Numbered from the stretch's first letter, positions 10,188 through 61,808 are shown. The stretch: 64,000 nucleotides of DNA from Methanothrix sp. (GCA_963682135.1 OY821645.1:672001-736000), one strand, 5' to 3'. Translations and numbers: made by a program. The notes: a model not told the origin generated them from the letters alone.

Positions 10188-10305
10188 CGCTGAGGGTGAG
10201 ATTTGAACTCACGAGATGCGTCGCATCACTGGTTTGCTCGTCCCGCCCTCCGGATGGAGAGCAGTACCTCAAGACCAGCGCCGTAGGCCGCTTGGCTACC
10301 TCAGC
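10188..10305 (-). tRNA. tRNA-Ser(TGA) with 33-nt intron at position 37/38
   Basis: Acceptor stem GCTGAGG/CCTCAGC; D arm AGCCAAGCGG; anticodon stem CTGGT/ACCAG with TGA at 10271-10269; intron 10235-10267; long variable arm GATGC-GAC-GCATC; T loop GTTCAAATC; G discriminator. Confidence 0.9.
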
Positions 10306-10386
10306 TCAGCCTGACTTCTTTGCACCATTAGCTTTTAAGCCTGACGATTCGATAATCTTAATATCCTTCACAGCCATTTTTCTCTG

Positions 10387-11625
10387 ATGCTGATAAAAGA
10401 CGTCTCCATTATAGAATCTGGACAATTGCAGCCTGGCCGGGACATCCTCCTCGACGGTGGCAAGATCACCAATGTAGGCCGTGACCTCAGGGATGAGAGC
10501 GATGACGAGCCGATCGACGGGCGGGGAAAATTGGCCATCCCCGGCCTCATCAACGGCCATACCCACCTGGCCATGACCCTCCTGCGCGGCTACGCAGACG
10601 ACATGGAGCTGATGCCCTGGCTGCAGGAGAAGATCTGGCCTCTGGAAGCCAAGATCAATGAGGAAGACGTTCGCTGGGGAGTGAAGCTGGGCTGCCTGGA
10701 GCAGATTCGCTTCGGCATCACCTGCTACAGCGATATGTACTACTTCCCGGATGCTACCGCCCAGGCCACAAAAGAGATGGGCCTGCGCGCCTTTCTCTCC
10801 GGCGTGGTCTTCGATATGAAGCCGGAGCTTCTCGGTCAGGTGGAGCCTTTCATCCGCCGCTGGAAGGGAGACGAGCTGATCACACCCGCTGTGGGCCCGC
10901 ATGCTGCTTACACCTGCTCAGAGGAGACGCTGCTAAAGGCAAAGGAGATCGCCGACCGGCATGATGCTATGATTCACATCCACCTCTCTGAGACCCGCGA
11001 GGAGGTGGACGGATTTCTGCTCTCCAAAGGCAAAAGCCCGGTAGAGTACCTGGACTCACTGGGCCTGCTAAACTCCCGCCTGACAGCGGTGCACTGCGTT
11101 TGGATCTCTCCGGAAGACTGCGATCTTCTGGCTGAGAGGAAGGCCAATGTGGTGAGCTGCACAGAGAGCAATCTCAAGCTGACTTCAGGCATCGCACCGC
11201 TCAATACTATGATGAAAGCTGGAATAAACGTCTGCCTGGGCACTGACGGCGCTTCCAGCAACAACAACCTGAGTATCTTCGAGGAGATGAAGACCACCGC
11301 TATCGCCCAGAAGAATGCTTACCACACTCCTGCCGCATTCTCAGCAGAGCAGATCTGGCGCATGGCCACAGAGAATGCCGCTCGAGCCTTTGGCCTCAAC
11401 CTGGGGCTTCGCCCCGGCGCTCTGGCCGACCTGGCTCTCATCGATCTGAAAAAACCCTGGTTCTGGCCGCAGAGCAATATTATTTCCCACCTGGTCTACA
11501 GCATGTCCGGAGGCGTGGACACAACCATCGTCAACGGTAAGGTGCTCATGCAGGGTGGGGTGATACCGGGCGAGGAGGAAATCTTGGAGAAGGCCCAGGA
11601 GCGTTTCCTGCGTCTGACCTCTTAG
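10387..11625 (+). CDS. Amidohydrolase, 5'-deoxyadenosine/MTA/SAH deaminase family
   Basis: NGHTH, GPHAAYTCS, HIHLSET, HCVW, GTDGASSNN motifs. Confidence 0.9.
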   Translation: MLIKDVSIIESGQLQPGRDILLDGGKITNVGRDLRDESDDEPIDGRGKLAIPGLINGHTHLAMTLLRGYADDMELMPWLQEKIWPLEAKINEEDVRWGVKLGCLEQIRFGITCYSDMYYFPDATAQATKEMGLRAFLSGVVFDMKPELLGQVEPFIRRWKGDELITPAVGPHAAYTCSEETLLKAKEIADRHDAMIHIHLSETREEVDGFLLSKGKSPVEYLDSLGLLNSRLTAVHCVWISPEDCDLLAERKANVVSCTESNLKLTSGIAPLNTMMKAGINVCLGTDGASSNNNLSIFEEMKTTAIAQKNAYHTPAAFSAEQIWRMATENAARAFGLNLGLRPGALADLALIDLKKPWFWPQSNIISHLVYSMSGGVDTTIVNGKVLMQGGVIPGEEEILEKAQERFLRLTS

Positions 11626-11668
11626 TACTGTCAGGCCTAATTGATGCCATCTTCATGAGTCGGACCGC

Positions 11669-13219
11669 TCAATCCGATATCGCCTTCTTTCGCAGCAGGC
11701 GATTGTAGGCGATGGCAAATCTGTGCGCCTCATCTCTGATCTCCTGCACAAAGAGAGAGGCTTTTTCATTCTTCCGGATCAAAAGCGGCCCGTCCAGTCC
11801 GGGCACATAGATCTCCTCCTCGCCCTTGGCCAGAGAGATGATGGGAATCTTCAGCCTCAGCTCTCGCAGCACTGCCAGAGCCGAGGAAAGCTGCCCTTTG
11901 CCCCCATCGATGACAATGAGGTCCGGCATATCCTGTATCTCTTCCTTGAGGCGAGAGTAGCGTCGCAAAACGATCTCCGCGATGGAAGCGAAATCATCTA
12001 TTCCCTGCACGCTCTTGATCTTGAAGCGCCTGTAATTGCTCTTGTCCGGCCTGCCTCCCCGAAACTGCACCATGGAGCCCACGGAAAAGGTGCCTGCCAG
12101 ATGCGAGATGTCGAAGCATTCAATGACCTGAGGGGCCTTGGGAAGATGCAGCACCTCCGCCAGGGCCTGCACCTTCATTCGGTCTCCAAAGAAGCCGATA
12201 TCCAGATTCTTTCTGGCCAGCTCCAATAGCTCCTTCTTTTCACCCTGCTTGGGAACGGTGACGTGTACCTTCTTTCCTTTGACGTGTGAGAGAAAATCCA
12301 CCAGAGACTCATCCAACGGCTCATCGAGGATCAGCTCCTCAGGAGGCTCCCTTTCCGAGTAGTACTGCACCAGAAATTCCTCCAGGAAGTTGTCGCTCTG
12401 GGCAAAGACGAAGTCCTCTTTTCCTTCCAGAGTGCCATGGTAAACCTTGAAGAGCATGAGAAAGACGCTGGAGCCATCTATCTGATAGCTAATAACATCC
12501 TGATCGTACTTGCGGCTCTTCTCTACCTGCTGGCGCTCCTGCAGGTGCTGCAAAGCTGCTATTTCATCACGCAGCTCTATGGCTCTCTCGAATTCCTGAC
12601 GAGCGGAAAGCTGTGTCATCTCTTTCTGCAAAGATTCGACCAATTCCCCGGTTTTGCCTCCCAGGGCCGAAGCGGCTTTTTTTACCCTGGCCAGGTAGTC
12701 TGCTTCAGCTATCTTTCCCAAACACGGGCCGGTGCAGTGACCCAGATGGTAGCGCAGGCATGCACGTTTGGGCAGCCTTTTGCAGGTGCGCAAACCAAAG
12801 GTCTTGCGAAGAAGCTGGTAGACGAATGTCCTCTCCCGAGCGGAGGTGAAGGGGCCGAAGAAAGAGCCTTTGCCGGCGGCTTTGCGGGAGACTCTGATGC
12901 GCGGGAATTTCTCATCAGTCAGCTCAATACAAGCATAGCGGGAAGAGTCTTTGAGCTTGATGTTGTAGCGGGGCTGATGCTTCTTGATGAGAGTGTTTTC
13001 CAATAGCAGCGCTTCAACCTCTGTGTTGGTGACGATGAACTGCAATCCTTTTGATGCCAGGACGAGAGCCTTTGTTCTGGGTCCGTGGTCCTGCTTCTGG
13101 AAATAATTGGAGACTCGCTTCTTGAGATCTCGGGCTTTGCCAACATAGATCACCTTGCCCTGGTCGTCCGTGAATAGGTAGCATCCGGGATTATGAGGAA
13201 GAGAGTCGAGAGAGATCAT
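11669..13219 (-). CDS. uvrC: Excinuclease ABC subunit C
   Basis: GIY-YIG motif PGCYLF..IYVGKA; UVR domain EFERAIELRD; IECFDISH, DLIVIDGGKGQL, RDEAHRFA; ends before the HhH domain. Confidence 0.95.
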   Translation of the reverse strand: MISLDSLPHNPGCYLFTDDQGKVIYVGKARDLKKRVSNYFQKQDHGPRTKALVLASKGLQFIVTNTEVEALLLENTLIKKHQPRYNIKLKDSSRYACIELTDEKFPRIRVSRKAAGKGSFFGPFTSARERTFVYQLLRKTFGLRTCKRLPKRACLRYHLGHCTGPCLGKIAEADYLARVKKAASALGGKTGELVESLQKEMTQLSARQEFERAIELRDEIAALQHLQERQQVEKSRKYDQDVISYQIDGSSVFLMLFKVYHGTLEGKEDFVFAQSDNFLEEFLVQYYSEREPPEELILDEPLDESLVDFLSHVKGKKVHVTVPKQGEKKELLELARKNLDIGFFGDRMKVQALAEVLHLPKAPQVIECFDISHLAGTFSVGSMVQFRGGRPDKSNYRRFKIKSVQGIDDFASIAEIVLRRYSRLKEEIQDMPDLIVIDGGKGQLSSALAVLRELRLKIPIISLAKGEEEIYVPGLDGPLLIRKNEKASLFVQEIRDEAHRFAIAYNRLLRKKAISD

Positions 13220-15985: not shown

Positions 15986-16189
15986 TTAGTGGACTTCGTG
16001 GTGTGTACCAACTGCTTCAAGCAGAATGATCTCTTCTTGAGTTTCGAAATCTCGCACAAATTCAAATACGATGCGATATTCGAAGTCGACTGCATAAGCC
16101 CAAGAACCTGCCAGATCCCCTTTCAATTTGTGAGTATGAAGAGATGGATGAAGTGCATCGGTAGCGAGCAGTTTTCAGCGCATGTTCAA
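15986..16189 (-). pseudogene. YafQ-like RelE toxin, 5'-truncated
   Basis: Manual translation LLATDALHPSLHTHKLKGDLAGSWAYAVDFEYRIVFEF..LLEAVGTHHEVH*; the N-terminal part and start are missing. Confidence 0.75.
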
Positions 16190-16410
16190 TCTAACAAATC
16201 CGTCATCAGGTCTTCAAATGTGCCCCGCTTAGCTTCGCCTCTTTTGAACGCACCTCTCCCCTCTTGAACCTCAGCTACCAGCTCGGCCCGGCGCTTTTCT
16301 ATGATGCGCTTGTTGATCAGCTCCACCAGCATGGACTGATCATCCAGAGGCATTGACTCCACAGCTTCGATTAGATCCTGAAAGCTCAATGAATGCACGG
16401 CACAACTCAT
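16186..16410 (-). CDS. Putative antitoxin partner of the YafQ-like gene
   Basis: SFQDLIEAVESMPLDDQ..RRAELVAEVQEGR..GTFEDLM; lies directly upstream of the toxin remnant. Confidence 0.7.
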   Translation of the reverse strand: MSCAVHSLSFQDLIEAVESMPLDDQSMLVELINKRIIEKRRAELVAEVQEGRGAFKRGEAKRGTFEDLMTDLLD

Positions 16411-16541
16411 TGGAATTCACCATTTCCGAGATCCTTGATTGCTGTTAAAGGAATTGAACCTTTGGGTTTTATGATCGATTCATCATCCATTGCAGTCTTA
16501 TCAGCCCCTCGACTGTGCGTGTGCCTGTTGCATTTGGATTA

Positions 16542-17714
16542 TCAAGGATCTCTTTTTATTTGCTGCATTTTTCTGCAAATATCAGCTTCGTTTTCGGCCC
16601 AGATCACATGAATACCCAATGATAATGCATCTTCTTCAAAAAATCGTTCTTCTTCAGCCTTCAACATCTTCACTGTATCTTCGAAATCAAGGTTATTGGC
16701 AATTTTCTCATCTAACATATCTTTATTAATTTTTAAAAATTTTTTAAAACATTTCCTGCAATCAGCGAGTCTTGGTCGAAGCTGAATGATATTATGAAAT
16801 TCATCATCATTTCTTTCATTTTTTGCAGAATCAAGCAACCTACGCAAATTGGGATCGTTTAAGGAGAGTCCTATTAAGAGACACTTATTTTTAATAAATT
16901 TATCTAATTGAGTCTTATTAGTCCAGGCATTACTCGTATTGTACAAAGCATGATACGCTTCTTCGCTTAGGATTATTCTGTTTTTATTCGTTAGATTACC
17001 ATTTCGGGGCAAGAATCCATGAACATGGTAAATCGGAATAGTTCCGGGTTCTTCTGTTTCGGAATAATATATTGACCTATAGTTCTCTTGATTATCTTTT
17101 TCGAGATAATGCTCCAAAATATCATCATAATTATATGTGATTATGCAATCTAATTTCTTTTGACCACCATCATCTGAACTAAGCCGAATTATCTCGTCCA
17201 ATAATTTCGATTTTTTAGATTTGTTATTTCTATATAATGCACATCTAACAAATTTCTCAAATACTATGCAATCATCATCTTCAAGTCCGAGACTGCTATG
17301 GTGATGAAGATTTCTAGCTAATACCAGCTCATTTCTATTGAACATTTTTAAAAATAATTTTTTAATGAAATATATTCTATCTTCAAAGTCATTTTCACGA
17401 ATATATATATTATTCTGTAATATCTTTAGGAGATCCTTCCAATCAGGCAAGCCGCAGCTTTTAGATACGCCAGCACCTAATATTAGTACTAATTTCTTGC
17501 TATTATATGCTTTGTTAAGTTGTATAAACTGGATTGAATCCTCTGGAGACAAAGGACGATTTGTTCGCCTTTGATGAAAAATTTTAATAATTGTATTTAT
17601 ATCTTGTATTTCATCAAATGTATAATTTCCTAGCTCTCCGAAAGTTATATGACGAAGGTCTTGGAAGGTTACTGAATTGCATTTGTCATCAGGCAATCTT
17701 AGATCATGATTCAT
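16542..17714 (-). CDS. SIR2-like (SIR2_2) domain protein, probable defence NADase
   Basis: LILGAGVS..LPDW, IITYNYDD, YHVHG, LLIGLSLNDPNL; markedly AT-rich. Confidence 0.85.
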   Translation of the reverse strand: MNHDLRLPDDKCNSVTFQDLRHITFGELGNYTFDEIQDINTIIKIFHQRRTNRPLSPEDSIQFIQLNKAYNSKKLVLILGAGVSKSCGLPDWKDLLKILQNNIYIRENDFEDRIYFIKKLFLKMFNRNELVLARNLHHHSSLGLEDDDCIVFEKFVRCALYRNNKSKKSKLLDEIIRLSSDDGGQKKLDCIITYNYDDILEHYLEKDNQENYRSIYYSETEEPGTIPIYHVHGFLPRNGNLTNKNRIILSEEAYHALYNTSNAWTNKTQLDKFIKNKCLLIGLSLNDPNLRRLLDSAKNERNDDEFHNIIQLRPRLADCRKCFKKFLKINKDMLDEKIANNLDFEDTVKMLKAEEERFFEEDALSLGIHVIWAENEADICRKMQQIKRDP

Positions 17715-18216
17715 AGAATAGCCCTTATAGCATCAATCTGGAGATGATTTATTACAGCCCCCGAAACGCGGCACAGTGGCCGCGCTTCTGGAACTGCTCC
17801 TCCCTCCTGTGATGTAGTTGTTGTTGGGTTATAATCGTTTATCCCGAGGCCATAGCCTTATGGCATCGTGTCCGGGCACAGGTGTAGCCGCACCCGTCCG
17901 AGACCATGCTATAACTTCCCATGATATAAAGTTTCTTCTCGCCCCTCGCTTATTTCTGCAAAATATCATCCATATGGCGTCCTCTAACCAGCCGGTAAGC
18001 CTTCAAGCATTGTGGCTACCAGCTTATTGCGCGATCGAGTCAGCGATAGAGCGAATATGTTGATACTCAAATTGGCAAAAGGAGATCTGAAGGGCCGAGT
18101 TCAAACGCCTGGACTAAAAGAAGACCAAAAGAAAAACTGCAAGCCCTGCCTTTTTCCGGGCAGAGTTCTTCCTGCTCGTCGGCAAGGCTTGCAACTCTTG
18201 TATCTACTATTACTGC

Positions 18217-33269: not shown

Positions 33270-35771
33270 TTATTCTCCATTCCTGGACTTGGCCCGGAGG
33301 GCTTGCAGACGCTTGGCATCATTTTCTGAATCTGGATGTCCGATCTCCCTTTCATAGTCTACGCATATCTGCATCAGTTCAGCAGCCTGCTTGAGACCTC
33401 CTGATTTCTCATATGCGAGACCCAGATTCCAGCAAGTATTTGCTTCGCCCCTTCGGTCCCCGATCTCGTGGGCAATGACAAGACGCTGATCGTAGTACTC
33501 GATGGCCTTACGGGCGTCGCCCAGGTCGGCGTAGGCATTGCCCAGGTTGCCCAGATCAGCTCCCTCGCTCCTTCGGTCCCCGATCTCACGGGCTATAGTC
33601 AGGTGCTGCTCATAATACTCGATGGCCTTACGGGCGTCGCCCAGGTCGGCGTAGGCATTGCCCAGGTTGCCCAGCGCATTTCCTTCGCCCCTTCGGTCCC
33701 CGATATCACGGGCTATGGTCAGGTGCTGCTCGTGGTACTCGATGGCCTTGTGGGCGTCGCCCAGGTTCTTGTATGCGATGCCCAGGTTGCCCAGCGCATT
33801 TCCTTCGCCCCTTCGGTCCCCGATATCACGATCAATGGCCAGCGCCTGCTCGAGGTACTCGATGGCCTTACGGGCGTCGCCCAGGTCGGCATAGGCCAGG
33901 CCCAGGTTGCCCAGATCAGCTCCCTCGCCCCTTCGGTCCCCGATCTCGCGGGCTATGGTCAGATGCTGCTCGTAGTACTCGATGGCCTTACGGGCATCGC
34001 CCAGGTCGGCGTAGGCATTGCCCAGGTTGCCCAGCGCAGCTCCTTCGCCACTTCTGTCCCCGATCTCACGGGCTATGGTCAGGTGCTGCTCGTGGTACTC
34101 GATGGCCTTGTGGGCGTCGCCCAGGTTCTTGTATGCGATGCCCAGGTTGCCCAGCGCATTTCCTTCGCCCCTTCGGTCCCCGATCTCACGGGCTATGGTC
34201 AGATGCTGCTCGTGGTACTCGATGGCCTTGTGGGCGTCGCCCAGGGCGGCGTAGGCATTGCCCAGGTTGCCCAGCGCAGCTCCTTCGCCCTGCTTCGTCC
34301 CAATTTTGCGAAAAGCTTTCAGTGATTGCTTATGATAGTCGATGGCCTTGCGAACATTTCCAATGGCAGCGCTGGCAAGGCCCAACATAGTGAGAAAAGA
34401 TGCTTCGTCATAGCTTGCACCATCAGAATGTGCTGCCTCCAGTCCACACTCCAACATGGCAATTCTCTCCCCCGAATGCCCCTGTAGATCAAGATAATCT
34501 TTGATAGCCCACACAAGAGACCGAGCCTCTGCCAGCATCCCGATCCTAATGCAGACTGACTGAACTGCCAGGATGTGATCTCTCTGAGCATCTAAGTTTT
34601 CGTATCCTGGCAATCCCAGCTTCATCTGTTCTTGGCCGAATTTATCGTAATGCTGAGCCAGTCGAGCCAGTTCTTCCTTTGATACAGACAGCCTTTCCCT
34701 GGCATAAGTATGTGCCAGAGAATGGGTTATCTGATAGCTGGATTCAGGGCGCATTAACAATCCAAAATCGACCAGCTCGCCCAGGCTGAAGTTCGCCTTC
34801 AGAGCAGATAACTGCAGAGCTATGGCTATGACCTCAGGCTCGAAGGACTTCATGGCCAGAACTCCCGCCAGGCCGAGACAGGAGAGCGCCTGATCGCTTA
34901 CGTGCTCCAGACTGTGCTCCATCAGCAGTGGAATGCTCTGATGCTGCTTTTTTCCCATGTCCAGAGCCTCAAGCGGCGTCTCCTTCAGCCAGGCCAGATA
35001 GTCGCTGGCAATCTGTCGCCGGTGAGCCAGGTAGCGGCCTGCCAAGAATATGGCCAGGGGCAAACAGCCCAGGAGATTGCAGATGCTGCGAGATGTCTTT
35101 TCATCTGCAGCCATCGAGCCGCCCCAGGCCTGCAAAAGCTCGACAGCCTTATCCTCAGGCAGAGGCAGCAGATCGCTTGGCTCCTCAGGAGCATCGCTTC
35201 GGCGCCTGGTGGTGATGAGAACTCCGCAGCTTCCTGTGACTGTTAAAACTGCCTGCAGGTCATCGCAGGCCTCGGCTCCATCCAGGACTATCAGAGCCTG
35301 GCGGCCGGCCAGGGCTCTCTTTGCTGCTTCGTAAGGGCTTTGCCGCGGGTCTTCTCCATAAGCTCGGGCGATTTCTTCCAGAGCCGAAGCAGCCTGAGGC
35401 TTGTGATAGAAGGTATGAAAGACTATTCCATCTGGGAAGCGTTCCAGCGGGTTGCTTACGGGCGCAAGCTGCCAGATAGCTTCGGCAGCCAGAGCGGTCT
35501 TGCCCATACCTCCAGGGCCGCAGATGGTGACTGCGTGGCCAGCCTGAAGGTCCCGGTGGAGCGAAGCTAGCTCGGCCTCTCTTCCTGTGAAATGAGGGAC
35601 TCGCTGCGGCCTTTGGAAGGGCAGGCGAAGTTTTAGAGCTTCATTGTAGATGAAATCGCCCTGGATCTGGAACTGGCCGGAGAAGAGCGGGCCAGAGACG
35701 TCTCCTGCTACGTTGGTTTGTGGACCGTTGGTCGTCTGGCCACGTTGGTTGATTGCAGGCTTGTAGTTCAT
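33270..35771 (-). CDS. NLR-like STAND (NB-ARC-type) ATPase-TPR receptor with N-terminal signalling motif A
   Basis: FTGREAEL, Walker A GPGGMGKT, Walker B LIVLDG, LITTR, CLPLA; seven 40-aa TPR repeats; N-terminal QRGQTTNGPQTNVAGDVSGPLFSGQF. Confidence 0.9.
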   Translation of the reverse strand: MNYKPAINQRGQTTNGPQTNVAGDVSGPLFSGQFQIQGDFIYNEALKLRLPFQRPQRVPHFTGREAELASLHRDLQAGHAVTICGPGGMGKTALAAEAIWQLAPVSNPLERFPDGIVFHTFYHKPQAASALEEIARAYGEDPRQSPYEAAKRALAGRQALIVLDGAEACDDLQAVLTVTGSCGVLITTRRRSDAPEEPSDLLPLPEDKAVELLQAWGGSMAADEKTSRSICNLLGCLPLAIFLAGRYLAHRRQIASDYLAWLKETPLEALDMGKKQHQSIPLLMEHSLEHVSDQALSCLGLAGVLAMKSFEPEVIAIALQLSALKANFSLGELVDFGLLMRPESSYQITHSLAHTYARERLSVSKEELARLAQHYDKFGQEQMKLGLPGYENLDAQRDHILAVQSVCIRIGMLAEARSLVWAIKDYLDLQGHSGERIAMLECGLEAAHSDGASYDEASFLTMLGLASAAIGNVRKAIDYHKQSLKAFRKIGTKQGEGAALGNLGNAYAALGDAHKAIEYHEQHLTIAREIGDRRGEGNALGNLGIAYKNLGDAHKAIEYHEQHLTIAREIGDRSGEGAALGNLGNAYADLGDARKAIEYYEQHLTIAREIGDRRGEGADLGNLGLAYADLGDARKAIEYLEQALAIDRDIGDRRGEGNALGNLGIAYKNLGDAHKAIEYHEQHLTIARDIGDRRGEGNALGNLGNAYADLGDARKAIEYYEQHLTIAREIGDRRSEGADLGNLGNAYADLGDARKAIEYYDQRLVIAHEIGDRRGEANTCWNLGLAYEKSGGLKQAAELMQICVDYEREIGHPDSENDAKRLQALRAKSRNGE
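33450..34289 (-). repeat. Seven near-identical 120-bp tandem TPR-coding repeats
   Basis: The unit CCCAGGTTGCCCAG...CCCGAT(C/A)TC...TACTCGATGGCCTT recurs every 120 nt. Confidence 0.95.
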
Positions 35772-35777
35772 GATGGG

Positions 35778-38300
35778 CTATCTCCTCCATTCGGCCAGTT
35801 TTTGCTCAACCCTGGCTGCAAAGGGACTTTCGATTTGCCTGTAAATTTCGAGGGCAATTTCTGCTTTCTTGATAGCTTCGGGGTGCTTGCCGAGTCCGTA
35901 GAGGGCCAGACTGGAATTGTACAGCGCATTTCCTTCGCCCCTTCTGTCCCCGATCTCACGATCGATGGCTAGCGCCTGCTCGTAGTACTCGATGGCCTTA
36001 CGGGCGTCGCCCAGGGCGGCGTAGGCCAGGCCCAGGTTGCCCAGCGCAGCTCCTTCATTCCTTTTATCCCCGATTTCCTTGGCAATGGCCAGCGCCCGAT
36101 CGTAGTACTCGATGGCCTTACGGGCGTCGCCCAGGTCGGCGTAGGCATTGCCCAGGTTGCTCAGCGCATTTCCTTCGCCCCTTCTGTCCCCGATATCACG
36201 ATCAATGGCCAGCGCCTGCTCGTAGTACTCGATGGCCTGGCAGGCGTCGCCCAGGGCGGCGTAGGCCAGGCCCAGGTTGCCCAGCCAAGCACCTTCATTC
36301 CTTTTATCCCCGATTTCCTTGGCAATGGCCAGCGCCTGCTCGTAGTATTCGATGGCCTTACGGGCGTCGCCCAGGTCGGCGTGTGCCAGGCCCAGGTTGC
36401 CCAGCGCATTTCCTTCGCCCCTTCTGTCCCCGATCTCTCGGGCTATGGTCAGGTGCTGCTCGTAGTACTCGATAGCCTTACGGGCGTCGCCCAGGTCAGC
36501 GTGTGCCAGGCCCAGGTTGCCCAGCGCATTTCCTTCGCCCCTTCTGTCCCCGATCTCTCGGGCTATGACAAGACGCTGCTCGTAGTACTCGATGGCCTTA
36601 CGGGCGTCGCCCAGGGCGGCGTAGGCCAGGCCCAGGTTGCCCAGCGCATTTCCTTCGCCCCTTCTGTCCCCGATCTCACGATCAATGGCCAGCGCCTGCT
36701 CGTGGTACTCGATGGCCTTACGGGCGTCGCCCAGGGCGGCGTAGGCCAGGCCCAGGTTGCCCAGCGCATTTCCTTCGCCCCTTCTGTCCCCGATCTCACG
36801 ATCAATGGCCAGCGCCTGCTCGTAGTACTCGATGGCCTTACGGGCGTCGCCCAAAACGTAGTGGGCACTGCCCAGGTTACCCAGCGCAGCTCCTTCCACG
36901 CCCCTATTCCTCAGCTTTCTAGCAGCTTTCAAGGCTTCTTCAAGCCAGGAAATCCTCTGCGTCGGATGGAGGCGCAAATCTATCACATAAACTCCTGCAC
37001 CAGGGTAGTTCATGCAAAGATTCGCTGCCTGGGAATTTACTTCCAGGCTCTTACAGGACCAGGCATGACCGACGTTGATATTCGCTTCTTCTCTGTCAAA
37101 GAGCGCAAGACCCTTTTGGATTCCTTCGCTTCCCTGCAGGTAGTGGTCATCGGCTGCAGCTAGCAGATCTTTGTAGTAAGAGGAATGCCTTGCAGCAATG
37201 ATCTCCCTCGATTCGTCCCGCTGACGGGCTGAGGCAAAGAGGCGAGAGAGGTCGTGCAGCCTGTAGCGCCCATAATCCCGATCTTGAGACCTGTAATCTA
37301 CGAGACTCCACCGCACCAGCTCACTCAAATTCCTGTGCTTATCATCCAGGCAGATCTGCTCCTCAGCCTGGGCATCGAAGTCCGCCGGAAAGACTGACAG
37401 ATCGAGAAAAGTCTTCTGCACAGCAGCAGCAAGCCTTTGAAAGCTTAGGCCTAAGCTGGCGTCAACGCTCATCTCCACGCCCTGCTCGCCGATCATCTCA
37501 AGCCTGGTGCGCTCGTCCTTCAGCTCCTGAGCATATTGCTTCGGGCCGATGTCCTCGGAATTGGCCAGATAGCTTCCGGCAGCTCTCAAGGCCAGCGGCA
37601 GAAAGCCGCAGAGGCTGGCAATTTCAAGCCAGGCAGGGTCATCTCTGGGTGACTTATCTTGCTTTGCAGGGCAGCAGACATTGAGCAGCAGCTCCAGAGC
37701 TTCACCTGGCTTCATGACGTCCAGGTCCTTTTTGAAGAGGCCGGGTATTTTGATGGTCCTGCGGGAGGTGATGAGAAGAGCGCAGCTCTTGGGAGGAATC
37801 AGCTTGATGACCTGCTTGTCATCGGACGCATTATCCAGAAGGAGCAGGACGCGCTTGCCATTAAGCACTTCAAGATATCTGTCTTTGACTTCTGAATCGC
37901 TTTCTGGAATCTTTTCGTTGCGATGATAAGAATGGATGACATAGGCCATTGCCTCCATGGGAGAGAGGGGATTGGTCGTGCCCATCATGTCCACCATGAT
38001 CTGGCCGTCTGGGTAGCGATCTTTGAGTGATTCGGCGAGCTTGAGAGCAAGAGCCGTCTTGCCAACGCCCCCTATGCCACGCAGGCCGATGATGTTCTTG
38101 CCGGCTGAATACTCCGCTAAAAGCTCATTCAGCTCTTCATTGCGGCCTGTGAAATCTGAAGGCGGTTCCGGGATGAAAGGAAGCCGGGAGAGATCATTAG
38201 GTTTTGGGATATTAATATTATAATAATTTCTATCTCCGAATTGCTGCTCTACATTCCCAGTGGGATTTACAACCGGCCCTTTAGCATCCCTGAAATCCAA
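35778..38300 (-). CDS. NLR-like STAND (NB-ARC-type) ATPase-TPR receptor with N-terminal signalling motif B
   Basis: TTG start after GGAGGAG; FTGRNEEL, GIGGVGKT, LLLLDNA, LITSR, FLPLA, MHD-like RLHDL; eight 40-aa TPRs; N-terminal DFRDAKGPVVNPTGNVEQQFGD. Confidence 0.9.
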   Translation of the reverse strand: MDFRDAKGPVVNPTGNVEQQFGDRNYYNINIPKPNDLSRLPFIPEPPSDFTGRNEELNELLAEYSAGKNIIGLRGIGGVGKTALALKLAESLKDRYPDGQIMVDMMGTTNPLSPMEAMAYVIHSYHRNEKIPESDSEVKDRYLEVLNGKRVLLLLDNASDDKQVIKLIPPKSCALLITSRRTIKIPGLFKKDLDVMKPGEALELLLNVCCPAKQDKSPRDDPAWLEIASLCGFLPLALRAAGSYLANSEDIGPKQYAQELKDERTRLEMIGEQGVEMSVDASLGLSFQRLAAAVQKTFLDLSVFPADFDAQAEEQICLDDKHRNLSELVRWSLVDYRSQDRDYGRYRLHDLSRLFASARQRDESREIIAARHSSYYKDLLAAADDHYLQGSEGIQKGLALFDREEANINVGHAWSCKSLEVNSQAANLCMNYPGAGVYVIDLRLHPTQRISWLEEALKAARKLRNRGVEGAALGNLGSAHYVLGDARKAIEYYEQALAIDREIGDRRGEGNALGNLGLAYAALGDARKAIEYHEQALAIDREIGDRRGEGNALGNLGLAYAALGDARKAIEYYEQRLVIAREIGDRRGEGNALGNLGLAHADLGDARKAIEYYEQHLTIAREIGDRRGEGNALGNLGLAHADLGDARKAIEYYEQALAIAKEIGDKRNEGAWLGNLGLAYAALGDACQAIEYYEQALAIDRDIGDRRGEGNALSNLGNAYADLGDARKAIEYYDRALAIAKEIGDKRNEGAALGNLGLAYAALGDARKAIEYYEQALAIDREIGDRRGEGNALYNSSLALYGLGKHPEAIKKAEIALEIYRQIESPFAARVEQKLAEWRR
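35940..36899 (-). repeat. Eight near-identical 120-bp tandem TPR-coding repeats
   Basis: Same 120-nt unit as 33450-34289. Confidence 0.95.
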
Positions 38301-38343
38301 AATTTGACTCCTCCTGCTTGATCTTTTAATCCCTCATCGAGGT

Positions 38344-39477
38344 CTACTCATCCTCTGGAGCTATGAGCTCGATCTTTTCGGGATCTACTCCCTCCTTGAC
38401 CAGCAATTCTGGTTTGCTTTCTTCCGGTATCCCCTCAAGGAGCAGAACGACGATCCCTTGATCAAAAGCCTGCTTAATCGATAGCCCAAATCCTATGGCC
38501 CGGTAGAAAGAGCCAGCAAAGGCAATTGCAGCCTCATCTCCGATTGCATCGTTCATGCCAATGGCGCAATCGATCACCTGGGTAATGGCTTCAGCCTGAA
38601 TTTTAGAGTAGCACGCATTTAGGATTACTACTCGAATGTTAGCTTTCAGCGTCTGGAATAGCGCCTTTATCGCTCTGGGATTTACTGGCTTTTGCTCTCC
38701 CCGGCTATCCACTAAAATTATCTCGCCAGATTGGCTGCCGTGCCCACTGAAATGCACAATCTGCGGCTTATGCTGGTTGAGCAGTTGCAGCAAATCATCG
38801 GGACGAACTGCCCAGGCGGATATGAGGTCTATTGAATCACGGTACTCTGCAGCTCTGATCTTTTCTGTGATCTCTCGGATCTCTCTATCAAGCTCCAAAG
38901 GTGTGGTGCCTTTGGGATTTGAAGCCAGGAAGAGAGCCTTAATCTTTTTAGAATTTTTATTATCATCGGACGATTCTTTTGCCCTGGAATGATCGATATT
39001 CACATCTCCGAAATGCTGGCTGACTGAGCCGCTTGGCCTAATAACCGCGCCTTTCGAGCCTCGAAAGTCATTTGCGTCTCCATTGAATTGACCGGAAAAT
39101 ACAGCTCCCTGTACGCCTCCGGCAATATTGGTCTGCGGACCGTGAACTGTCTGGCCCCGCTGGTCGAATACCGATCCTGCGCCCTCTTTCTTGATTGTCT
39201 CGACAAGCCTCTGAATCTCCTCTGCAAAATCAGCATCATCTTCCATCTTTTCGGCTATGGCCGCCTGTAGGGCAGCCTGCCTTGCCTTTGAATCCGGCTT
39301 CTCCTGGGCGCCAGCCAAAGCCTGCTGGGCGCTGGCGTCGCCTTTGAACCTGTCTGCAACCGACCCGGAAAGATCACCTACCAGACCCCCCAGCTTCTCT
39401 CCAACGGTTTTTGAAAATACTTCTGCTCCCTTAGCCACAAAGGGAGCCGCAAGGGCCGCTATTCCGAGTAGATCCAT
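38344..39477 (-). CDS. Effector: helical Bell/HeLo-like domain + two signalling motifs + CHAT (caspase-like) protease
   Basis: N-terminal hydrophobic/amphipathic helices (AALAAPFVAKGAE..DDADFAEEIQRLV); G/Q/N-rich linker aa 104-158; CHAT motifs LFLASNP, VHFSGHG, VILNAC with catalytic His and Cys. Confidence 0.85.
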   Translation of the reverse strand: MDLLGIAALAAPFVAKGAEVFSKTVGEKLGGLVGDLSGSVADRFKGDASAQQALAGAQEKPDSKARQAALQAAIAEKMEDDADFAEEIQRLVETIKKEGAGSVFDQRGQTVHGPQTNIAGGVQGAVFSGQFNGDANDFRGSKGAVIRPSGSVSQHFGDVNIDHSRAKESSDDNKNSKKIKALFLASNPKGTTPLELDREIREITEKIRAAEYRDSIDLISAWAVRPDDLLQLLNQHKPQIVHFSGHGSQSGEIILVDSRGEQKPVNPRAIKALFQTLKANIRVVILNACYSKIQAEAITQVIDCAIGMNDAIGDEAAIAFAGSFYRAIGFGLSIKQAFDQGIVVLLLEGIPEESKPELLVKEGVDPEKIELIAPEDE

Positions 39478-56891: not shown

Positions 56892-59800
56892 TCATTCCTT
56901 GTTTTTTGCAGGGGATTTTTCAGCTAGTTTATCAGTGAGACTCTTAATCAACTCATCAAGATCTTTCTCATACTCTTCATTGAGATCCAATTCCTTCGCC
57001 AACCGGCAACATTTCGAGGCCTTTCTGGCAATGAGCGGATCCCTCTTTGATTGCAGATCCCATAAATCAATTTTGCCCTTATATGCCATAGCCAGGTGAA
57101 AATATGCAGAAGGTCCGGCTTGCTCGGACACGGATTTCTCAAGCCAGTATATCGCTTCATCTATGAGGCCAAGGTCATAGCAAATCCAGCCCATGCAATC
57201 TTCGTAATCGGCATTTAAGCGATGCATCCTTGATTGATAATCCTCTTTATATTCTCTGCTATTTGTCCCTTTATTGCAGTCTTCCAGTGAGCCAATATCT
57301 TTTTTGGCAAGACGAGCATTATCAAGGGCAATACCAGGGTTACCATTGCGTTCTATGCATGAGATTGATTTACCTAAATAGGCTCGAATTATTATCTCAT
57401 TTGGATAAATGAAATCTTCATATTTTTCTCCAAGAATATTATCTGGCGCATCTTCTTTAAATTTTACTCCTTCTGATATTATCTGGTCGAACAGTCTATC
57501 CGATTCATCGAATGACTTAGCTTTGAGGTAAGCATAAGCAAGTCTTAGGGCGATTATGAGCGTGTCTCTATCGGAATGGATCTTTGCAGATCTAACATTG
57601 TAGAGAATTCTGAAATGAGGTATTGCTTTCTTGTAGTTGCCCATCTCATAATGCACTTTGCCAAGCCAGTAACGAGCCACACCTCTCTTTGTTATCAGAG
57701 ATTTATCATAGATCCTCAGGGCTTGATTGAGTTTATCACTGGCGGCAGTCAGTATTTTCTTACGATGTTCTTTATCATCGCATTTTTTTGCCTGTTTAAC
57801 ATATGATTGTGCCATCTCAACCAGGATTTCAGGCTTGTCAGGCTTCCAAGATTGTGCATAATCCAGCTCTTGCATGCCAAAATCAAACTCCTCCAGGTCG
57901 CAGAATATGCTGCCAAGCTCACGACGCTCGTCATAGCCCAACGGGTTAGACATCCTTCCTTTTTGTGCTCCTTTTAGGGCATTCGACATTTCTTTTCTTT
58001 GCTCACTCTGTGATCGGGAAAGCTTCGTCCAGAGGCTTCTGCTTTTTATATCCTGAGGACGTTCATCCTCTAATAGATTAATTGCTTCCTGGAAGGCCGT
58101 TTCCGCTTCTCTTGGCTTTTTCATATTAAGATAAAGCTGACCTGATTCAATCAAGAGCTGAGAATATTCCTGGACATACATGGAGTACTTTCTTGGAAAT
58201 TCAGTTTTAATTATTGAACTATTATTTTTATTATCCTTAATAAAAATCTCATTGATCTCTTCAAGCGTATTTATAGATTCTTTATCAAATAAATCCACCT
58301 GCGCTTTGATTTTATCATTATTCTTTTTATTTTCAATAGCATCAACAGCTCTGAGATAGACATCTGCGCAATTTTTTAGGGCATTTTCTAATTCATCGAT
58401 CGCTTCTTTATTGTGGGATAGTTTTTGCGCTTCGCTAATAATATCGCTAATTTTTCTTTGTAATTTATTGTACATTTTTTTATTTTTATAATCTCTAGCT
58501 TCAATTGGATTTGACTCACCATTTATAAGTTTGTATGTATCTAATTTGCATTTTAACACATTCTTGGCATTGGCGAGACAATTCTCAGACTCTTGCTTTT
58601 TTTCTTGATTTTTTTGATATATTTCATTAAATAGAGCATCCAATACGTTTATTTCCGGGCCAATGAAGATAGAGTCGTCTTTGAGATGCTTATTTAAACT
58701 TTCTATTTTTTTATCGAAATCACTATTATCTTGAATCTTATTATTTTCTAGAAAATTAATTGAATTAGTGAGACATCTATGGGCATCGTCTGGTCTTTTC
58801 GATTTCAAATAGTGCTCATGTCTATCAAACATCTCTCTAGCCTTTCTGAAAGAATCGTCCCAATAATTATAATATAAATAAGATAAATAACTATACGAAT
58901 AAAGAACCTGTGCTCTTTCCCATCCCTTTTCTGCCCGATGATAATCATTCTTCAATTTATCAATAATTATTTTGATGTGGTTTTCGTAAATGTTCTTAGT
59001 CTCATTGCTATCGTTATCTATTGAATCTAGGTCATCTAATAATTTAATTAATGTCGCAAAAACGGCGGCGCTTTTCCAATTCCCCGATACACCTTCCTCT
59101 TTTCCGCCGCATTCAAGCATCATTTTAAGACATTTGATAATCGAATCTCCTTTCTTTGCATCATCCTTTAATCTTGCCAAAAAGGAAGCATTTTCCAGAC
59201 GTCGACATTGCTCGGCTTCCTCCATCGACCCATAGACTTTTGCCACCATTTCCAGGGCGGCACTGCATGCATCAGGGCCATAGACCATGATACTATCGCA
59301 TAATTGAAACGCTCTTTCTTTGCACATTAATTCATTATGGGTTACTTCTTTGTTCCACTTTTTATAAAAAATACATCCAAGACATGCCTTGAACCTGTCA
59401 TCTTCAGGAGCCATTTTTGAGCCAAATTCGTAAATTTTTCTGGCGGCTTCATCGTATTTATTGGATGAATTCTGACAATGGGCTTTGCCTAGATGAAGAT
59501 ATAAATTGGAATCATAGGGATTCACGCTGATGGCCTGTTCAAGAGATTTTCTCGCACTAAAATTTTGCATAGAATAAGATAGCTCCTCTGGAAAGGATTT
59601 TTGCTTAAGCAAATATAGATCGGCCAGATCAATTAGGCACTCGCTAAACAGCTTCCTGGCATCAGTCAAATCATCCTCCCAGAATTCTGATTTTAGCAAT
59701 GCCAACAGGGAATAATATGCCGCCTTTTTACAGCACGTGATCGGATTTATTAGATCTATCTTTTGGACGCCGGATCCTGAATTCTTCACGCTGGTCTCAA

Positions 59801-61808
59801 CTGAACAGATAGACTCTCGGTTTTTTTCATCAATCCTGGCCAGATGGCTCATGGCATCTCCCTTCAGATTATATGCTTTTGCCAGACATCGATAATCCTT
59901 CAATATGATGCCAGAGTCTTTCTCTTTAAGTTTAATTATATAATCACTCAAATCAACAACTTTCGTATACTGTTCTGTAATTGTCTTATTGCAGAGGCGG
60001 AGAAGCTTAATATCATGATGATACGAATGAGAAAGTTCCTCTTGGTCTCTTGCTCTATCATAAATATTGAGCCCAAGGGCATAATATGCCTCCCATTCGT
60101 TGGGATTTTTCTTGATGGCCCTGGAGAACGCGACCTCGGCAGAGTCGAGCTGCTGGAGTTCGGTATAGACGACCCCTAAATTATAATAGGCTTTAATGGA
60201 GTCATCCTCCTCTTCGGCAGCATTGATGAAGTGCTTTTCAGCATCCTTTAAGTAATATTGCCTTTTTTTGACAGAATGCAGACAATCACGATAAGCTCGA
60301 AGACCTTCATTGAAATTCCAAATAGCTTTCCAGGGTACTACTTTGCCAGGTTCTCCAAATGCCAGCTTTGCGAAAATCCGGTGAGAGAGCTCACTAACCA
60401 TATCGTCAATCGGTCGGGTCTTTGAGTCACTATCCAAGGAGATCTGCTCATCAACAACCCAGCTGTATGGCTCACTTCCCGTCATAGTTGCGGTCAGGTA
60501 AAAAATGTCTCCCTTTTCCTTCGTTGTGTCTTTCGTCTTATGCAATCCGATAGTTATCCTTGGTCCCTGCATCAAGCGCCCGATCATACTGGTGACTGAC
60601 CCCAGGGGGACGCTTATTGGGCCAAGCCCAATCTCCGAATTTTCACTGGTTGAGCTCTTTAGAATATCTCCGATCTCCCCTGATTTAAGGGTGGCTTCGA
60701 CGGGCCTGCCTGCACCTGATTCAGATCGAATGGCACGTTGCTCATCTACATCTTTGTATAGCTCGCTTATCCTATTGAGGTTTGTTGCCAGCAGGTCGGC
60801 CAACCCACTTGGATTGGGTTCATCTCTGTCGGCCCCCTTTCCAGCTTTATCATCTGCTTTGGTTTCTTGCGGAGGGGAATTTGTGAAATCTTCCACAACA
60901 ATTGACAATTGATGAGATGTCCTCATGACGAGGATTATTACTTCTAAAAGAAACCAAATTACTAAGATCTTCTCCCAATGAAAACTGATAGTTGTTATTA
61001 TGCTTGATACCATTGCATAAAAAAAGTTATCCCCAAAATAATTCCAATATACTATTACTCCCTTTGGCGAATCCATATTGAGCAATAATCCGTCAGATGG
61101 TCCGTCCAGCAATGATCCTTGCGCATACCTTGCACCAAGATATGTGACGTTAGATATGATTCCATTGATCTGGGATGTGCCATCGATAATCATTCTTGAG
61201 CTCGATGCAATCAGGCCATTGTAGGCTTTCTCTATCAACCAGACAATGATTGCGACATCTGCCAGCCTTATTACAGGAGCCGGACATCCTGTAATCAAGA
61301 AGCGGTAGGTTTTTCCCAGCCATCTGGATATCCACAATAATAGAAATCGAGCAGGGAAAAAAATAGTATGTTTCGAAAGAATTAATAATGTTGAGAGGAG
61401 TAATAGTATTAATGAAATCAAGATAATAGAAAAGCCCAACATTGCCCATAGAGAAGATTGTGGTAAGCCTTTAGCTTCTCCAAAGAGTAGGTATAATATG
61501 CTTTCTCCATAGGCCTGGTCAATTATGCGAAGAATAAGAAGCGAAATTAGAATGACGCCAATGCCAAGAAATAATATTATCGCGTAAGCCCACCTTTTCT
61601 TACACAATGGTTTAAAATGGAAAATAAGAGCAGGAACAAAAAAGAAGAAAAAAAACGTAGTAATCGCATATGCCCAAAGATCAGACATCTCTGAGAAAGC
61701 TGTCGCTTTCACTAGAATGCTGATGAATGCACTGGCAATAAACAACGAACTCGCAAAAATAAAGAAAACCGTTGAAGCCCCATTCCTTACCTTCAGCATA
61801 ATTGGCAA
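56892..61808 (-). CDS. Large membrane-anchored TPR protein
   Basis: Multiple N-terminal TM helices followed by TPRs (AYYNLGVVY, LYLHLGKA, YWLGKVHY, YFHLAMAY); AT-rich. Confidence 0.8.
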   Translation of the reverse strand: MPIMLKVRNGASTVFFIFASSLFIASAFISILVKATAFSEMSDLWAYAITTFFFFFFVPALIFHFKPLCKKRWAYAIILFLGIGVILISLLILRIIDQAYGESILYLLFGEAKGLPQSSLWAMLGFSIILISLILLLLSTLLILSKHTIFFPARFLLLWISRWLGKTYRFLITGCPAPVIRLADVAIIVWLIEKAYNGLIASSSRMIIDGTSQINGIISNVTYLGARYAQGSLLDGPSDGLLLNMDSPKGVIVYWNYFGDNFFYAMVSSIITTISFHWEKILVIWFLLEVIILVMRTSHQLSIVVEDFTNSPPQETKADDKAGKGADRDEPNPSGLADLLATNLNRISELYKDVDEQRAIRSESGAGRPVEATLKSGEIGDILKSSTSENSEIGLGPISVPLGSVTSMIGRLMQGPRITIGLHKTKDTTKEKGDIFYLTATMTGSEPYSWVVDEQISLDSDSKTRPIDDMVSELSHRIFAKLAFGEPGKVVPWKAIWNFNEGLRAYRDCLHSVKKRQYYLKDAEKHFINAAEEEDDSIKAYYNLGVVYTELQQLDSAEVAFSRAIKKNPNEWEAYYALGLNIYDRARDQEELSHSYHHDIKLLRLCNKTITEQYTKVVDLSDYIIKLKEKDSGIILKDYRCLAKAYNLKGDAMSHLARIDEKNRESICSVETSVKNSGSGVQKIDLINPITCCKKAAYYSLLALLKSEFWEDDLTDARKLFSECLIDLADLYLLKQKSFPEELSYSMQNFSARKSLEQAISVNPYDSNLYLHLGKAHCQNSSNKYDEAARKIYEFGSKMAPEDDRFKACLGCIFYKKWNKEVTHNELMCKERAFQLCDSIMVYGPDACSAALEMVAKVYGSMEEAEQCRRLENASFLARLKDDAKKGDSIIKCLKMMLECGGKEEGVSGNWKSAAVFATLIKLLDDLDSIDNDSNETKNIYENHIKIIIDKLKNDYHRAEKGWERAQVLYSYSYLSYLYYNYWDDSFRKAREMFDRHEHYLKSKRPDDAHRCLTNSINFLENNKIQDNSDFDKKIESLNKHLKDDSIFIGPEINVLDALFNEIYQKNQEKKQESENCLANAKNVLKCKLDTYKLINGESNPIEARDYKNKKMYNKLQRKISDIISEAQKLSHNKEAIDELENALKNCADVYLRAVDAIENKKNNDKIKAQVDLFDKESINTLEEINEIFIKDNKNNSSIIKTEFPRKYSMYVQEYSQLLIESGQLYLNMKKPREAETAFQEAINLLEDERPQDIKSRSLWTKLSRSQSEQRKEMSNALKGAQKGRMSNPLGYDERRELGSIFCDLEEFDFGMQELDYAQSWKPDKPEILVEMAQSYVKQAKKCDDKEHRKKILTAASDKLNQALRIYDKSLITKRGVARYWLGKVHYEMGNYKKAIPHFRILYNVRSAKIHSDRDTLIIALRLAYAYLKAKSFDESDRLFDQIISEGVKFKEDAPDNILGEKYEDFIYPNEIIIRAYLGKSISCIERNGNPGIALDNARLAKKDIGSLEDCNKGTNSREYKEDYQSRMHRLNADYEDCMGWICYDLGLIDEAIYWLEKSVSEQAGPSAYFHLAMAYKGKIDLWDLQSKRDPLIARKASKCCRLAKELDLNEEYEKDLDELIKSLTDKLAEKSPAKNKE

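Follow-up and report, generated by a model that had tools for sequence, protein, structure and literature searches.

Within a 64,000-nucleotide stretch of Methanothrix sp. DNA (GCA_963682135.1 OY821645.1:672001-736000), hereafter the window, positions 33270-39477 contain a locus of three co-oriented open reading frames (ORFs) on the minus strand, encoding an effector, a receptor of the NLR type (NLR-B) and a second receptor of this type (NLR-A), in that order. The effector combines a Bell-type helical domain, two different short motifs (A and B) and a CHAT domain, while NLR-A and NLR-B each carry one of these motifs at the N-terminus, ahead of an NB-ARC domain and a TPR array (Table 1). An original prediction, made from the sequence, had proposed three tightly spaced genes in this arrangement, and the ORFs confirm it, with gaps of 43 bp between the effector and NLR-B and of 6 bp between NLR-B and NLR-A. 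The analysis was extended to the whole genome (3.04 Mb, 15977 ORFs of at least 50 amino acids), to other genomes of the genus, to metagenome contigs and to protein cluster representatives.

Motif matching between the effector and the receptors

The effector and NLR-A copies of motif A are identical at 19 of 28 residues, and the effector and NLR-B copies of motif B at 13 of 22; these counts, the motif positions and the coordinates agree exactly with those first proposed. On the effector, A and B are 5 residues apart. Likeness was evaluated by local alignment against composition-preserving shuffles (20000 for cognate and cross pairs, 5000 for the other comparisons). The cognate pairs scored 106 (A) and 79 (B), values that none of the 20000 shuffles attained. 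Nothing remarkable was seen for the cross pairs, the score of effector motif A against the NLR-B N-terminus being reached by 1333 of 20000 shuffles and that of effector motif B against the NLR-A N-terminus by 14119 of 20000. No likeness was detectable between A and B themselves (score 20, reached by 2906 of 5000 shuffles), and the idea that they are diverged pseudorepeats found no support.

Profile hidden Markov models of A and of B, built on 16 effector homologs alone, were run over all ORFs of the genome. Besides the effector, profile A retrieved NLR-A (E-value 3.6e-12), followed by the NLR (0.13) and the Bell protein (1.0) of a second locus described below, while profile B retrieved NLR-B (7.4e-8), the next matches having E-values of at least 45. 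Each motif has one clear partner in the genome besides the effector, namely the neighboring NLR, and the proposed one-to-one matching of A and B is upheld by the shuffles, the non-significant cross pairs and the genome-wide profiles. At the DNA level, effector and NLR copies are identical at 56 of 84 positions for A and 40 of 66 for B, and the codon is shared at only 7 of the 19 identical residues of A and 6 of the 13 of B. This synonymous divergence indicates that the likeness is maintained at the protein level and does not stem from recent DNA copying.

Motif A (28 residues, with G 6, Q 5, V 3, L 0, K 0 and P 1) and motif B (22 residues, with G 4, S 4, V 2, L 0, K 1 and P 1) are both enriched in G/Q/N/V/I and poor in L/K/P, and the effector linker that contains them (residues 100-170) has a predicted local distance difference test score (pLDDT) of about 23-30 in the full-length AlphaFold2 (AF2) model. 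The NLR-B copy of motif B resembles a printed Frankia peptide of the RHIM-like BASS3 class of bacterial amyloid signaling sequences (BASS; score 42, reached by 1 of 5000 shuffles); for the effector copy the corresponding figure is 898 of 5000, and the A copies were not significant either. Over the Bell+A+B region and both NLR N-termini, Pfam searches with E-values up to 10 returned only DUF2884 at 0.077, below its cut-off, and all NCBIfam matches lay far below curated cut-offs and so indicate no membership.

The two receptors

Pfam assigns NB-ARC and many TPR families to both NLRs. The first Pfam domain starts only at residues 50-55 in NLR-B and 55-61 in NLR-A, so neither has another N-terminal domain, in keeping with the proposal that the receptors carry no effector domain of their own. 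Their NB-ARC regions are about 30% identical. The nucleotide identity of TPR units averages 0.79 between the two genes (maximum 0.92), compared with 0.78 and 0.85 within them; the units are as alike between genes as within, which points to repeats that exchange or co-evolve between the neighboring receptors. Both arrays show high internal similarity, a property that the available text of Dyrka et al. 2020 (10.1101/2020.01.06.895854) also gives for such NLRs. In some other NLRs (L040:288-2474 and L028:5445-7367), roughly 60-90 hydrophobic, possibly membrane-spanning residues stand ahead of A or A–B, replacing a separate effector.

The Bell-type domain and a published Methanothrix peptide

The AF2 model of the Bell domain (88-row alignment) has a pLDDT of 91.2, a predicted template modeling score of 0.81 and five helices at residues 3-24, 27-44, 48-59, 64-80 and 82-100. 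The first helix is hydrophobic, and all 16 aligned homologs have Asp2. The best Foldseek TM-scores of this model, 0.34-0.43, were to generic helical bundles; Bell folds are reported to vary widely in topology (available text of 10.1101/2024.11.07.622273). The model of the full effector (16 rows) has a mean pLDDT of 49.7, and its CHAT part, poorly modeled (about 45-50), was kept out of the fold searches.

The domain's identity follows from homology. The Bell+A part of the effector is 57% identical (78/137, E-value 4e-54) to a Bell protein of the same genus, in genome G005, where a 144-residue Bell–A protein is followed by an NLR (L017) whose residues 5-29 are the printed peptide AEB69175.1_5_29; this bears out the "Bell-like" designation of the original prediction. 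The peptide belongs to a Methanothrix soehngenii NLR, and its sequence is given in Table 2 of PMC8086366, the available text of which reports beta-cross bands in Fourier-transform infrared spectra and Congo-red binding. AEB69174.1 is named as a Bell example in the accessible part of Dyrka et al. 2020 (10.1101/2020.01.06.895854), and from its adjacency to the NLR we infer that the G005 Bell ORF is this protein. Because the relative's peptide aggregated in the published work, motif A belongs to a family with some experimental backing.

Effector residues 1-165 were also scanned against 1.84 billion cluster representatives, yielding 316 matches at E-values of at most 1e-3, of which 150 are listed. 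Among these 150, 106 carry Bell with neither A nor B, and 89 are Bell-bearing proteins of at most 175 residues, mostly about 130-145 residues long with a G/N/V/I-rich tail. Short Bell proteins with such a tail represent the architecture termed Bell by Dyrka et al. 2020 (10.1101/2020.01.06.895854), as far as the available text goes.

The same genome has a second, canonical pair (G000:C1:1953463-1955768), in which a 137-residue Bell protein with a C-terminal motif abuts a 630-residue NLR. The NLR N-terminus and the Bell tail have in common a GQTVHG.QT.I core, a variant of motif A. This pair lies near an adenylate kinase gene, at a site that is syntenic in genomes G010 and G024.

The CHAT protease domain

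Pfam CHAT (PF12770) matches effector residues 168-340 with 37.4 bits against a cut-off of 24, and the PADLOC profiles "chat" and SAVED_CHAT match at 3e-17 and 3e-9. H246 and C289 are invariant in 16 of 16 homologs. A profile match at 4.3e-17 to PDB 8tl0_A ("CHAT domain-containing protein"), the only solved relative of this domain found, aligns the HFsGHG and LNAC stretches. Judged by these features, the C-terminal part of the effector is a predicted CHAT protease (caspase-like, clan CD) with His and Cys present, and the earlier CHAT assignment stands, given the Pfam score above cut-off and the invariant residues. Over the locus as a whole, PADLOC recognized "chat", "SAVED_CHAT" and "TPR" parts only and called no complete system.

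The CHAT part (38458-38976) is 56-76% identical in about a hundred cluster representatives (P0028-P0120) with unrelated N-terminal parts, including TIR, FGE-sulfatase, TPR, NACHT, FHA and caspase domains; some are named as proteins of Acidobacteria metagenome-assembled genomes (MAGs). By sequence comparison, the domain appears to be an unusually conserved, mobile protease cassette.

Conservation of the locus in relatives

A word-indexed search with the effector gave 2456 proteins with E-values of at most 1e-5 among 8000 candidates scored, 120 being listed. At least 21 representatives, the window's own included, span at least 96% of the effector. The 16 of them that were aligned (64-93% identity) all have the architecture Bell–A–spacer–B–CHAT, with invariant motif residues.

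Among 59 species genomes of the genus, Bell+A+B matches (E-value at most 1e-6) occur in 27, mostly as Bell–A proteins, an NLR-A relative (E-value at most 1e-30) in 10, and the full, intact effector in the window genome and G044. Behind the G044 effector (L048) stand three NLRs, whose motifs are B, A with the first half of B (L048_4213), and A. In G063 (L050), a Bell–A protein precedes two NLRs, both with A-type motifs. In G010 (L030), NLR-B and NLR-A are adjacent with the identical 6-bp gap, and the contig starts 56 bp before NLR-B, the upstream effector position lying off the contig. Receptor arrays of two or three recur (G010, G044, G063 and L071). A Bell ORF at the end of another G010 contig (G010:C166) was considered as the missing effector and rejected: like the second Bell locus it neighbors adenylate kinase, which makes it the ortholog of that locus. 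Genome G005 retains a broken Bell–A–B–CHAT remnant (L016:7762-8772) with stop codons, its 3' part replaced after the HFSGHG motif, and no adjoining NLR. About 78 kb from this wreck, G005 also has NLR-A fragments (L053).

A metagenome scan with Bell+A+B found 4 loci. A syntenic metagenome contig with the same flanking genes (L032) carries the effector and a single NLR of 844 residues (10196-12730), a chimera of the NLR-B N-terminus and NB-ARC with the C-terminal 60 residues of NLR-A; it reflects either a recombination deletion between near-identical TPR arrays or an assembly collapse. At L033, the effector is followed by NLR-B and the contig end. Effector and NLR motifs co-occur at G044, L032 and L033, A having no visible local partner where a B-type NLR alone is present.

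The A–B module on other effectors

The motif content of the 150 listed representatives of the Bell scan is A–B in 18, Bell–A–B in 7, A–B–A in 1, Bell–A in 13 and A alone in 5; proteins with B only are not expected to pass the E-value threshold of this Bell+A+B scan. The A–B pair stands behind diverse domains (Table 1), and its presence on many unrelated effectors argues for an adaptor role rather than one tied to the protease. The original view of the locus thus holds for the architecture, the motif matching, CHAT and Bell, and is refined in that A–B is widespread on many effector types and not specific to this locus.

Caspase–A–B effectors adjoin B-type NLRs in relatives (L027, L055 and L056), and the motifs are C-terminal in these caspase–A–B effectors as well as in Bell–A paralogs. 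Some genes are fused in frame precisely at the motifs, giving Bell–A–NLR-A (L049), caspase–B–NLR (L029) and caspase–A–half-B–NLR (L057). Single NLRs may carry A and B together (L028 of genome G024) or A with half of B (L048_4213, L057 and L058). Receptors thus come with A, B or both, the window representing the split state. The EPEPGAW linker recurs in caspase–A(–B) effectors on contigs titled as Anaerolineales, Chloroflexia and Ignavibacteriota MAGs (L063, GC 0.656; L068, GC 0.634; L060, GC 0.454). The two contigs of high GC (L063 and L068) have a genuinely bacterial look, suggesting that the module was transferred between domains; a binning error could account for L060, with its low GC.

Table 1. 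Features of the effector/NLR locus (window coordinates) and cluster representatives carrying the A–B module or motif A.
Feature	Position or representative	Strand	Basis
Effector gene, 377 aa: Bell-type helical domain, motif A, motif B, predicted CHAT protease	38344..39477	-	ORF; Pfam CHAT
Bell-type domain, aa 1-101	39175..39477	-	AF2, alignment, homology to Bell protein of published pair
Motif A, effector aa 104-131	39085..39168	-	Alignment, shuffles, profile
Motif B, effector aa 137-158	39004..39069	-	Alignment, shuffles, profile
CHAT caspase-like protease domain (predicted), aa 168-340	38458..38976	-	Pfam PF12770, 2.5e-9
Putative catalytic His246 of CHAT	38740-38742	-	Alignment and 8tl0_A profile match
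Putative catalytic Cys289 of CHAT	38611-38613	-	Alignment and 8tl0_A profile match
NLR-B, 840 aa, TTG start: motif B, NB-ARC, TPR array	35778..38300	-	ORF, Pfam
Motif B copy, NLR-B aa 2-23	38232..38297	-	Alignment, shuffles, profile
NB-ARC of NLR-B, aa 55-276	37473..38138	-	Pfam PF00931, 3.6e-15
TPR array of NLR-B, 120-bp unit, 8.1 copies, 85% matches	35922..36896	-	Repeat analysis
NLR-A, 833 aa: motif A, NB-ARC, TPR array	33270..35771	-	ORF, Pfam
Motif A copy, NLR-A aa 7-34	35670..35753	-	Alignment, shuffles, profile
NB-ARC of NLR-A, aa 78-257	35001..35540	-	Pfam PF00931, 2.7e-8
TPR array of NLR-A, 120-bp unit, 7.1 copies, 85% matches	33443..34290	-	Repeat analysis
A–B behind Bell+PNP_UDP	P0121		Pfam
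A–B behind C14 caspase	P0178		Pfam
A–B behind trypsin+caspase	P0168		Pfam
A–B behind GNAT	P0181		Pfam
A–B behind STAND ATPases	P0142, P0183		Pfam
A alone behind C14 caspase	P0233		Pfam
A alone behind Mrr_cat	P0235		Pfam

Proposed mechanism

On balance, we favor the view that the locus is an NLR-type sensing and cell-death module signaling by templated assembly of amyloid-like motifs, probably in an abortive-infection or non-self response. The placement in the NLR/amyloid-motif paradigm, already part of the original prediction, fits the adjacency of the genes, the sharing of motifs and the homology to the published Methanothrix pair. Oligomerization, templating, activation, gating logic and trigger are proposed by analogy with NWD2/HET-S and BASS systems, with Bab/Agp, and with the aggregation of the motif A family peptide. 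NLR-A and NLR-B would each bind a trigger via their variable TPR arrays and oligomerize through NB-ARC, crowding the N-terminal A or B copies into a beta-structured nucleus that would recruit and convert the cognate segment in the effector's A–B linker. In the polymerized effector, Bell would free its hydrophobic helix 1 and attack the membrane, and the CHAT domains would be activated by proximity. Either sensor is probably sufficient alone (an OR gate), a logic favored by the receptor/effector sets of relatives that have A only or B only.

Several observations weigh against this interpretation. Several A–B effectors adjoin a B-type NLR only (L032, L033, L027, L055 and L056), A having no visible local partner. 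Described BASS motifs are C-terminal on their effectors, but those of the window effector lie between two domains (residues 104-158 of 377), and the Pfam amyloid-motif families, searched with E-values up to 10, had no match in the effector linker or either NLR N-terminus. Foldseek gave 0 PDB matches for the Bell model at E-values of at most 1e-3, solved HeLo, MLKL or Bab-like structures included. The experimental backing comes from a relative's peptide of the motif A family, motif B being known from sequence. The window effector (38983-39084, residues 132-136) is also without 6 spacer residues (consensus about KGPxSMG) that 15 of 15 aligned homologs keep, and the neighbors of the locus are housekeeping genes, no defense island being recognizable. 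Co-variation was analyzed over 10 loci with 13 NLR motifs, the loci being related, by 20000 permutations: for motif A, the identity between cognate effector and NLR copies averages 0.527 versus 0.443 when permuted, a value reached by 2 of 20000 permutations; yet in 6 of the 10 loci the cognate NLR came 4th to 9th, and in only 4 did it take one of the top two ranks. As the ranks are mixed and the kinship of the loci inflates the permutation result, this amounts to modest support.

Alternative explanations

The module data led us to a further, tentative proposal, that A–B is a split-template adaptor forming one serpentine amyloid core of two segments, each nucleated by a different NLR, and that the A–B code links at least 3 receptor classes (A, B and A+B) to at least 7 effector classes (Bell, CHAT, PNP_UDP, C14 caspase, trypsin+caspase, GNAT and Mrr). 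If so, one killer would integrate several sensors, within a combinatorial immune network in Methanothrix whose module has moved between Archaea and Chloroflexi.

A different and rather unlikely reading is that A–B is one bipartite unit for which the two NLRs supply the halves of a single template, acting as an AND gate or as a heteromeric NLR-A/NLR-B resistosome. Of the 150 listed representatives, 26 have A–B in this fixed order and with the spacer conserved, and this agrees with such a unit, as do the single NLRs bearing A with B (L028) or with half of B (L048_4213, L057 and L058), the 6 bp between the receptor genes, and TPR units that are no less alike between these genes (mean 0.79, maximum 0.92) than within a gene (0.78 and 0.85). 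However, Bell–A effectors and A-only NLRs stand alone as pairs in many genomes, A–B effectors exist beside a B-type NLR only (L033, L027 and L055), A and B have no detectable mutual likeness (2906 of 5000 shuffles), and NB-ARC regions about 30% identical argue against an obligate hetero-oligomer of recent origin.

We consider it improbable that the motifs are homotypic docking peptides, operating by beta-strand augmentation or as a small folded adaptor with fixed stoichiometry and without amyloid polymerization. Adaptor domains common to STAND NTPases and effectors are a known principle (available text of PMC8195603), the motifs are internal and not terminal, the Pfam amyloid-motif families go unmatched even at E-values up to 10, and the amyloid character of the window's own motifs is read from their sequence and from a relative's peptide. 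Nevertheless, both motifs are rich in G, Q, N, V and T without a leucine, the linker has a pLDDT of 23-30, a peptide of the motif A family aggregated with beta-cross signatures (PMC8086366, in its available text), and the NLR-B copy resembles the BASS3/RHIM-like Frankia peptide (1 of 5000 shuffles).

That the motifs are passive footprints of effector/NLR gene recombination (fusion or fission of all-in-one NLRs) with no signaling role is very improbable, since the in-frame fusions exactly at the motifs (L049, L029 and L057) and the chimeric NLR of the syntenic metagenome locus, with its NLR-B front and NLR-A C-terminus, are outweighed by the contrast between synonymous divergence and amino-acid conservation, by motif residues invariant across 16 effectors at 64-93% identity, and by the retention of the motifs on unrelated effectors across Archaea and Chloroflexi-labeled contigs.

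Other features of the window

Apart from the locus, the minus strand of the window encodes at 16542-17714 a 390-residue protein with a SIR2_2 domain (1.6e-19); the local GC is low (0.384 at 16001-18000), and this may be a separate defense gene on acquired DNA. A 1638-residue ORF with TPR repeats (56892-61808, minus strand) covers the part of the window where GC is lowest (0.358 at 58001-60000).

Comparison with known systems

Fungi offer established cases of amyloid signaling from NLR to effector; for filamentous bacteria it has been proposed, and one phage-defense pair of Escherichia coli has now been shown to use it, archaeal cases being so far a side note in the literature available to us. 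The locus described here is real and conserved, and its proposed wiring appears new within this known kind of NLR amyloid signaling. Already in print, in the accessible text of Dyrka et al. 2020, are Bell/NLR pairs in Methanosarcinales including Methanothrix, BASS motifs next to CHAT, and one-motif repeats on effectors; the nearest printed case encountered concerns the N-termini of five Tuber NLRs, which bear a combined motif, NLR19+NLR34. In the literature searched, outside which lie the supplementary pair tables of Dyrka et al. 2020, we found no published description of two unlike tandem motifs each matched by its own NLR, which fits the original suggestion that this wiring is undescribed, nor of two or three NLRs queued behind one effector, of motifs between a Bell domain and an enzyme (Bell–A–B–CHAT), or of an A–B module common to many effector types.

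Two general questions are raised by this arrangement. The first concerns specificity, namely how cross-seeding barriers are encoded, here with two unlike motifs 5 residues apart, each with its own receptor. The second concerns integration, namely whether several sensors can converge on one executioner, and by what logic. A membrane-targeting domain and a caspase-like protease would moreover be placed under one switch. The four peptides (A and B, on the effector and NLR sides) constitute a compact set for direct tests.

The closest relatives are the Bell/NLR pairs of BASS1-10 (10.1101/2020.01.06.895854), including AEB69174.1/AEB69175.1. As presented in the available text, they resemble the window in having collinear genes side by side, a helical Bell domain (about 100 residues) whose first helix is hydrophobic and whose position 2 is acidic, a G/Q/N/V-rich motif of about 25 residues common to the effector and the N-terminus of an NB-ARC/TPR protein, and internally highly conserved TPR repeats. 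The motif of the published Methanothrix soehngenii pair is of the motif A family. The window differs in its tripartite effector (Bell, motifs and CHAT) with an internal rather than C-terminal motif region, in two unlike tandem motifs instead of one motif or its pseudorepeats, and in two receptors (elsewhere three), each carrying a different part. The hosts are likewise filamentous, Methanothrix being a filamentous methanogen.

In the fungal systems NWD2/HET-S and PNT1/HELLP(/SBP), an NLR likewise carries an N-terminal motif for a membrane-targeting effector; templating of the effector's amyloid fold by this motif is documented in fungi, whereas the window is known from its genes. According to the available accounts, enzymatic effectors (PNP_UDP, lipase) can bear the same motif, and HET-S has two motif repeats on the effector for one on the NLR. 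The r1 and r2 repeats of HET-s are pseudorepeats of one motif, whereas A and B are not detectably alike, and a fungal NLR serves one or several effectors, whereas in the window several NLRs would serve a single one.

Bab/Agp of E. coli (BASS11; Ibarlosa et al. 2024) is an experimentally shown abortive-infection phage-defense pair in which, as in the window, a Bell-related helical killer carries an amyloid motif matching the N-terminus of an adjacent TPR sensor, and BASS11 is also found with CHAT, TIR and NB-ARC domains (10.1101/2024.11.07.622273, available text). It has a single motif and a single sensor of TPR–GreA/B-C–PIN architecture, in contrast to the NLRs of the window, and its Babybell domain, about 80 residues, is shorter than the window's Bell, which gave no sequence match, or fold match with Foldseek, to Bab.

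Turning to the enzymatic part, the SAVED-CHAT protease is switched on by ligand-induced oligomerization, which would parallel the activation by polymerization proposed here. This closest solved relative (PDB 8tl0) shares with the window a CHAT domain with aligned His and Cys stretches, yet it is controlled by a cyclic-oligonucleotide-binding SAVED domain (CRISPR/CBASS), whereas the window pairs its predicted protease with amyloid-type motifs and NLRs.

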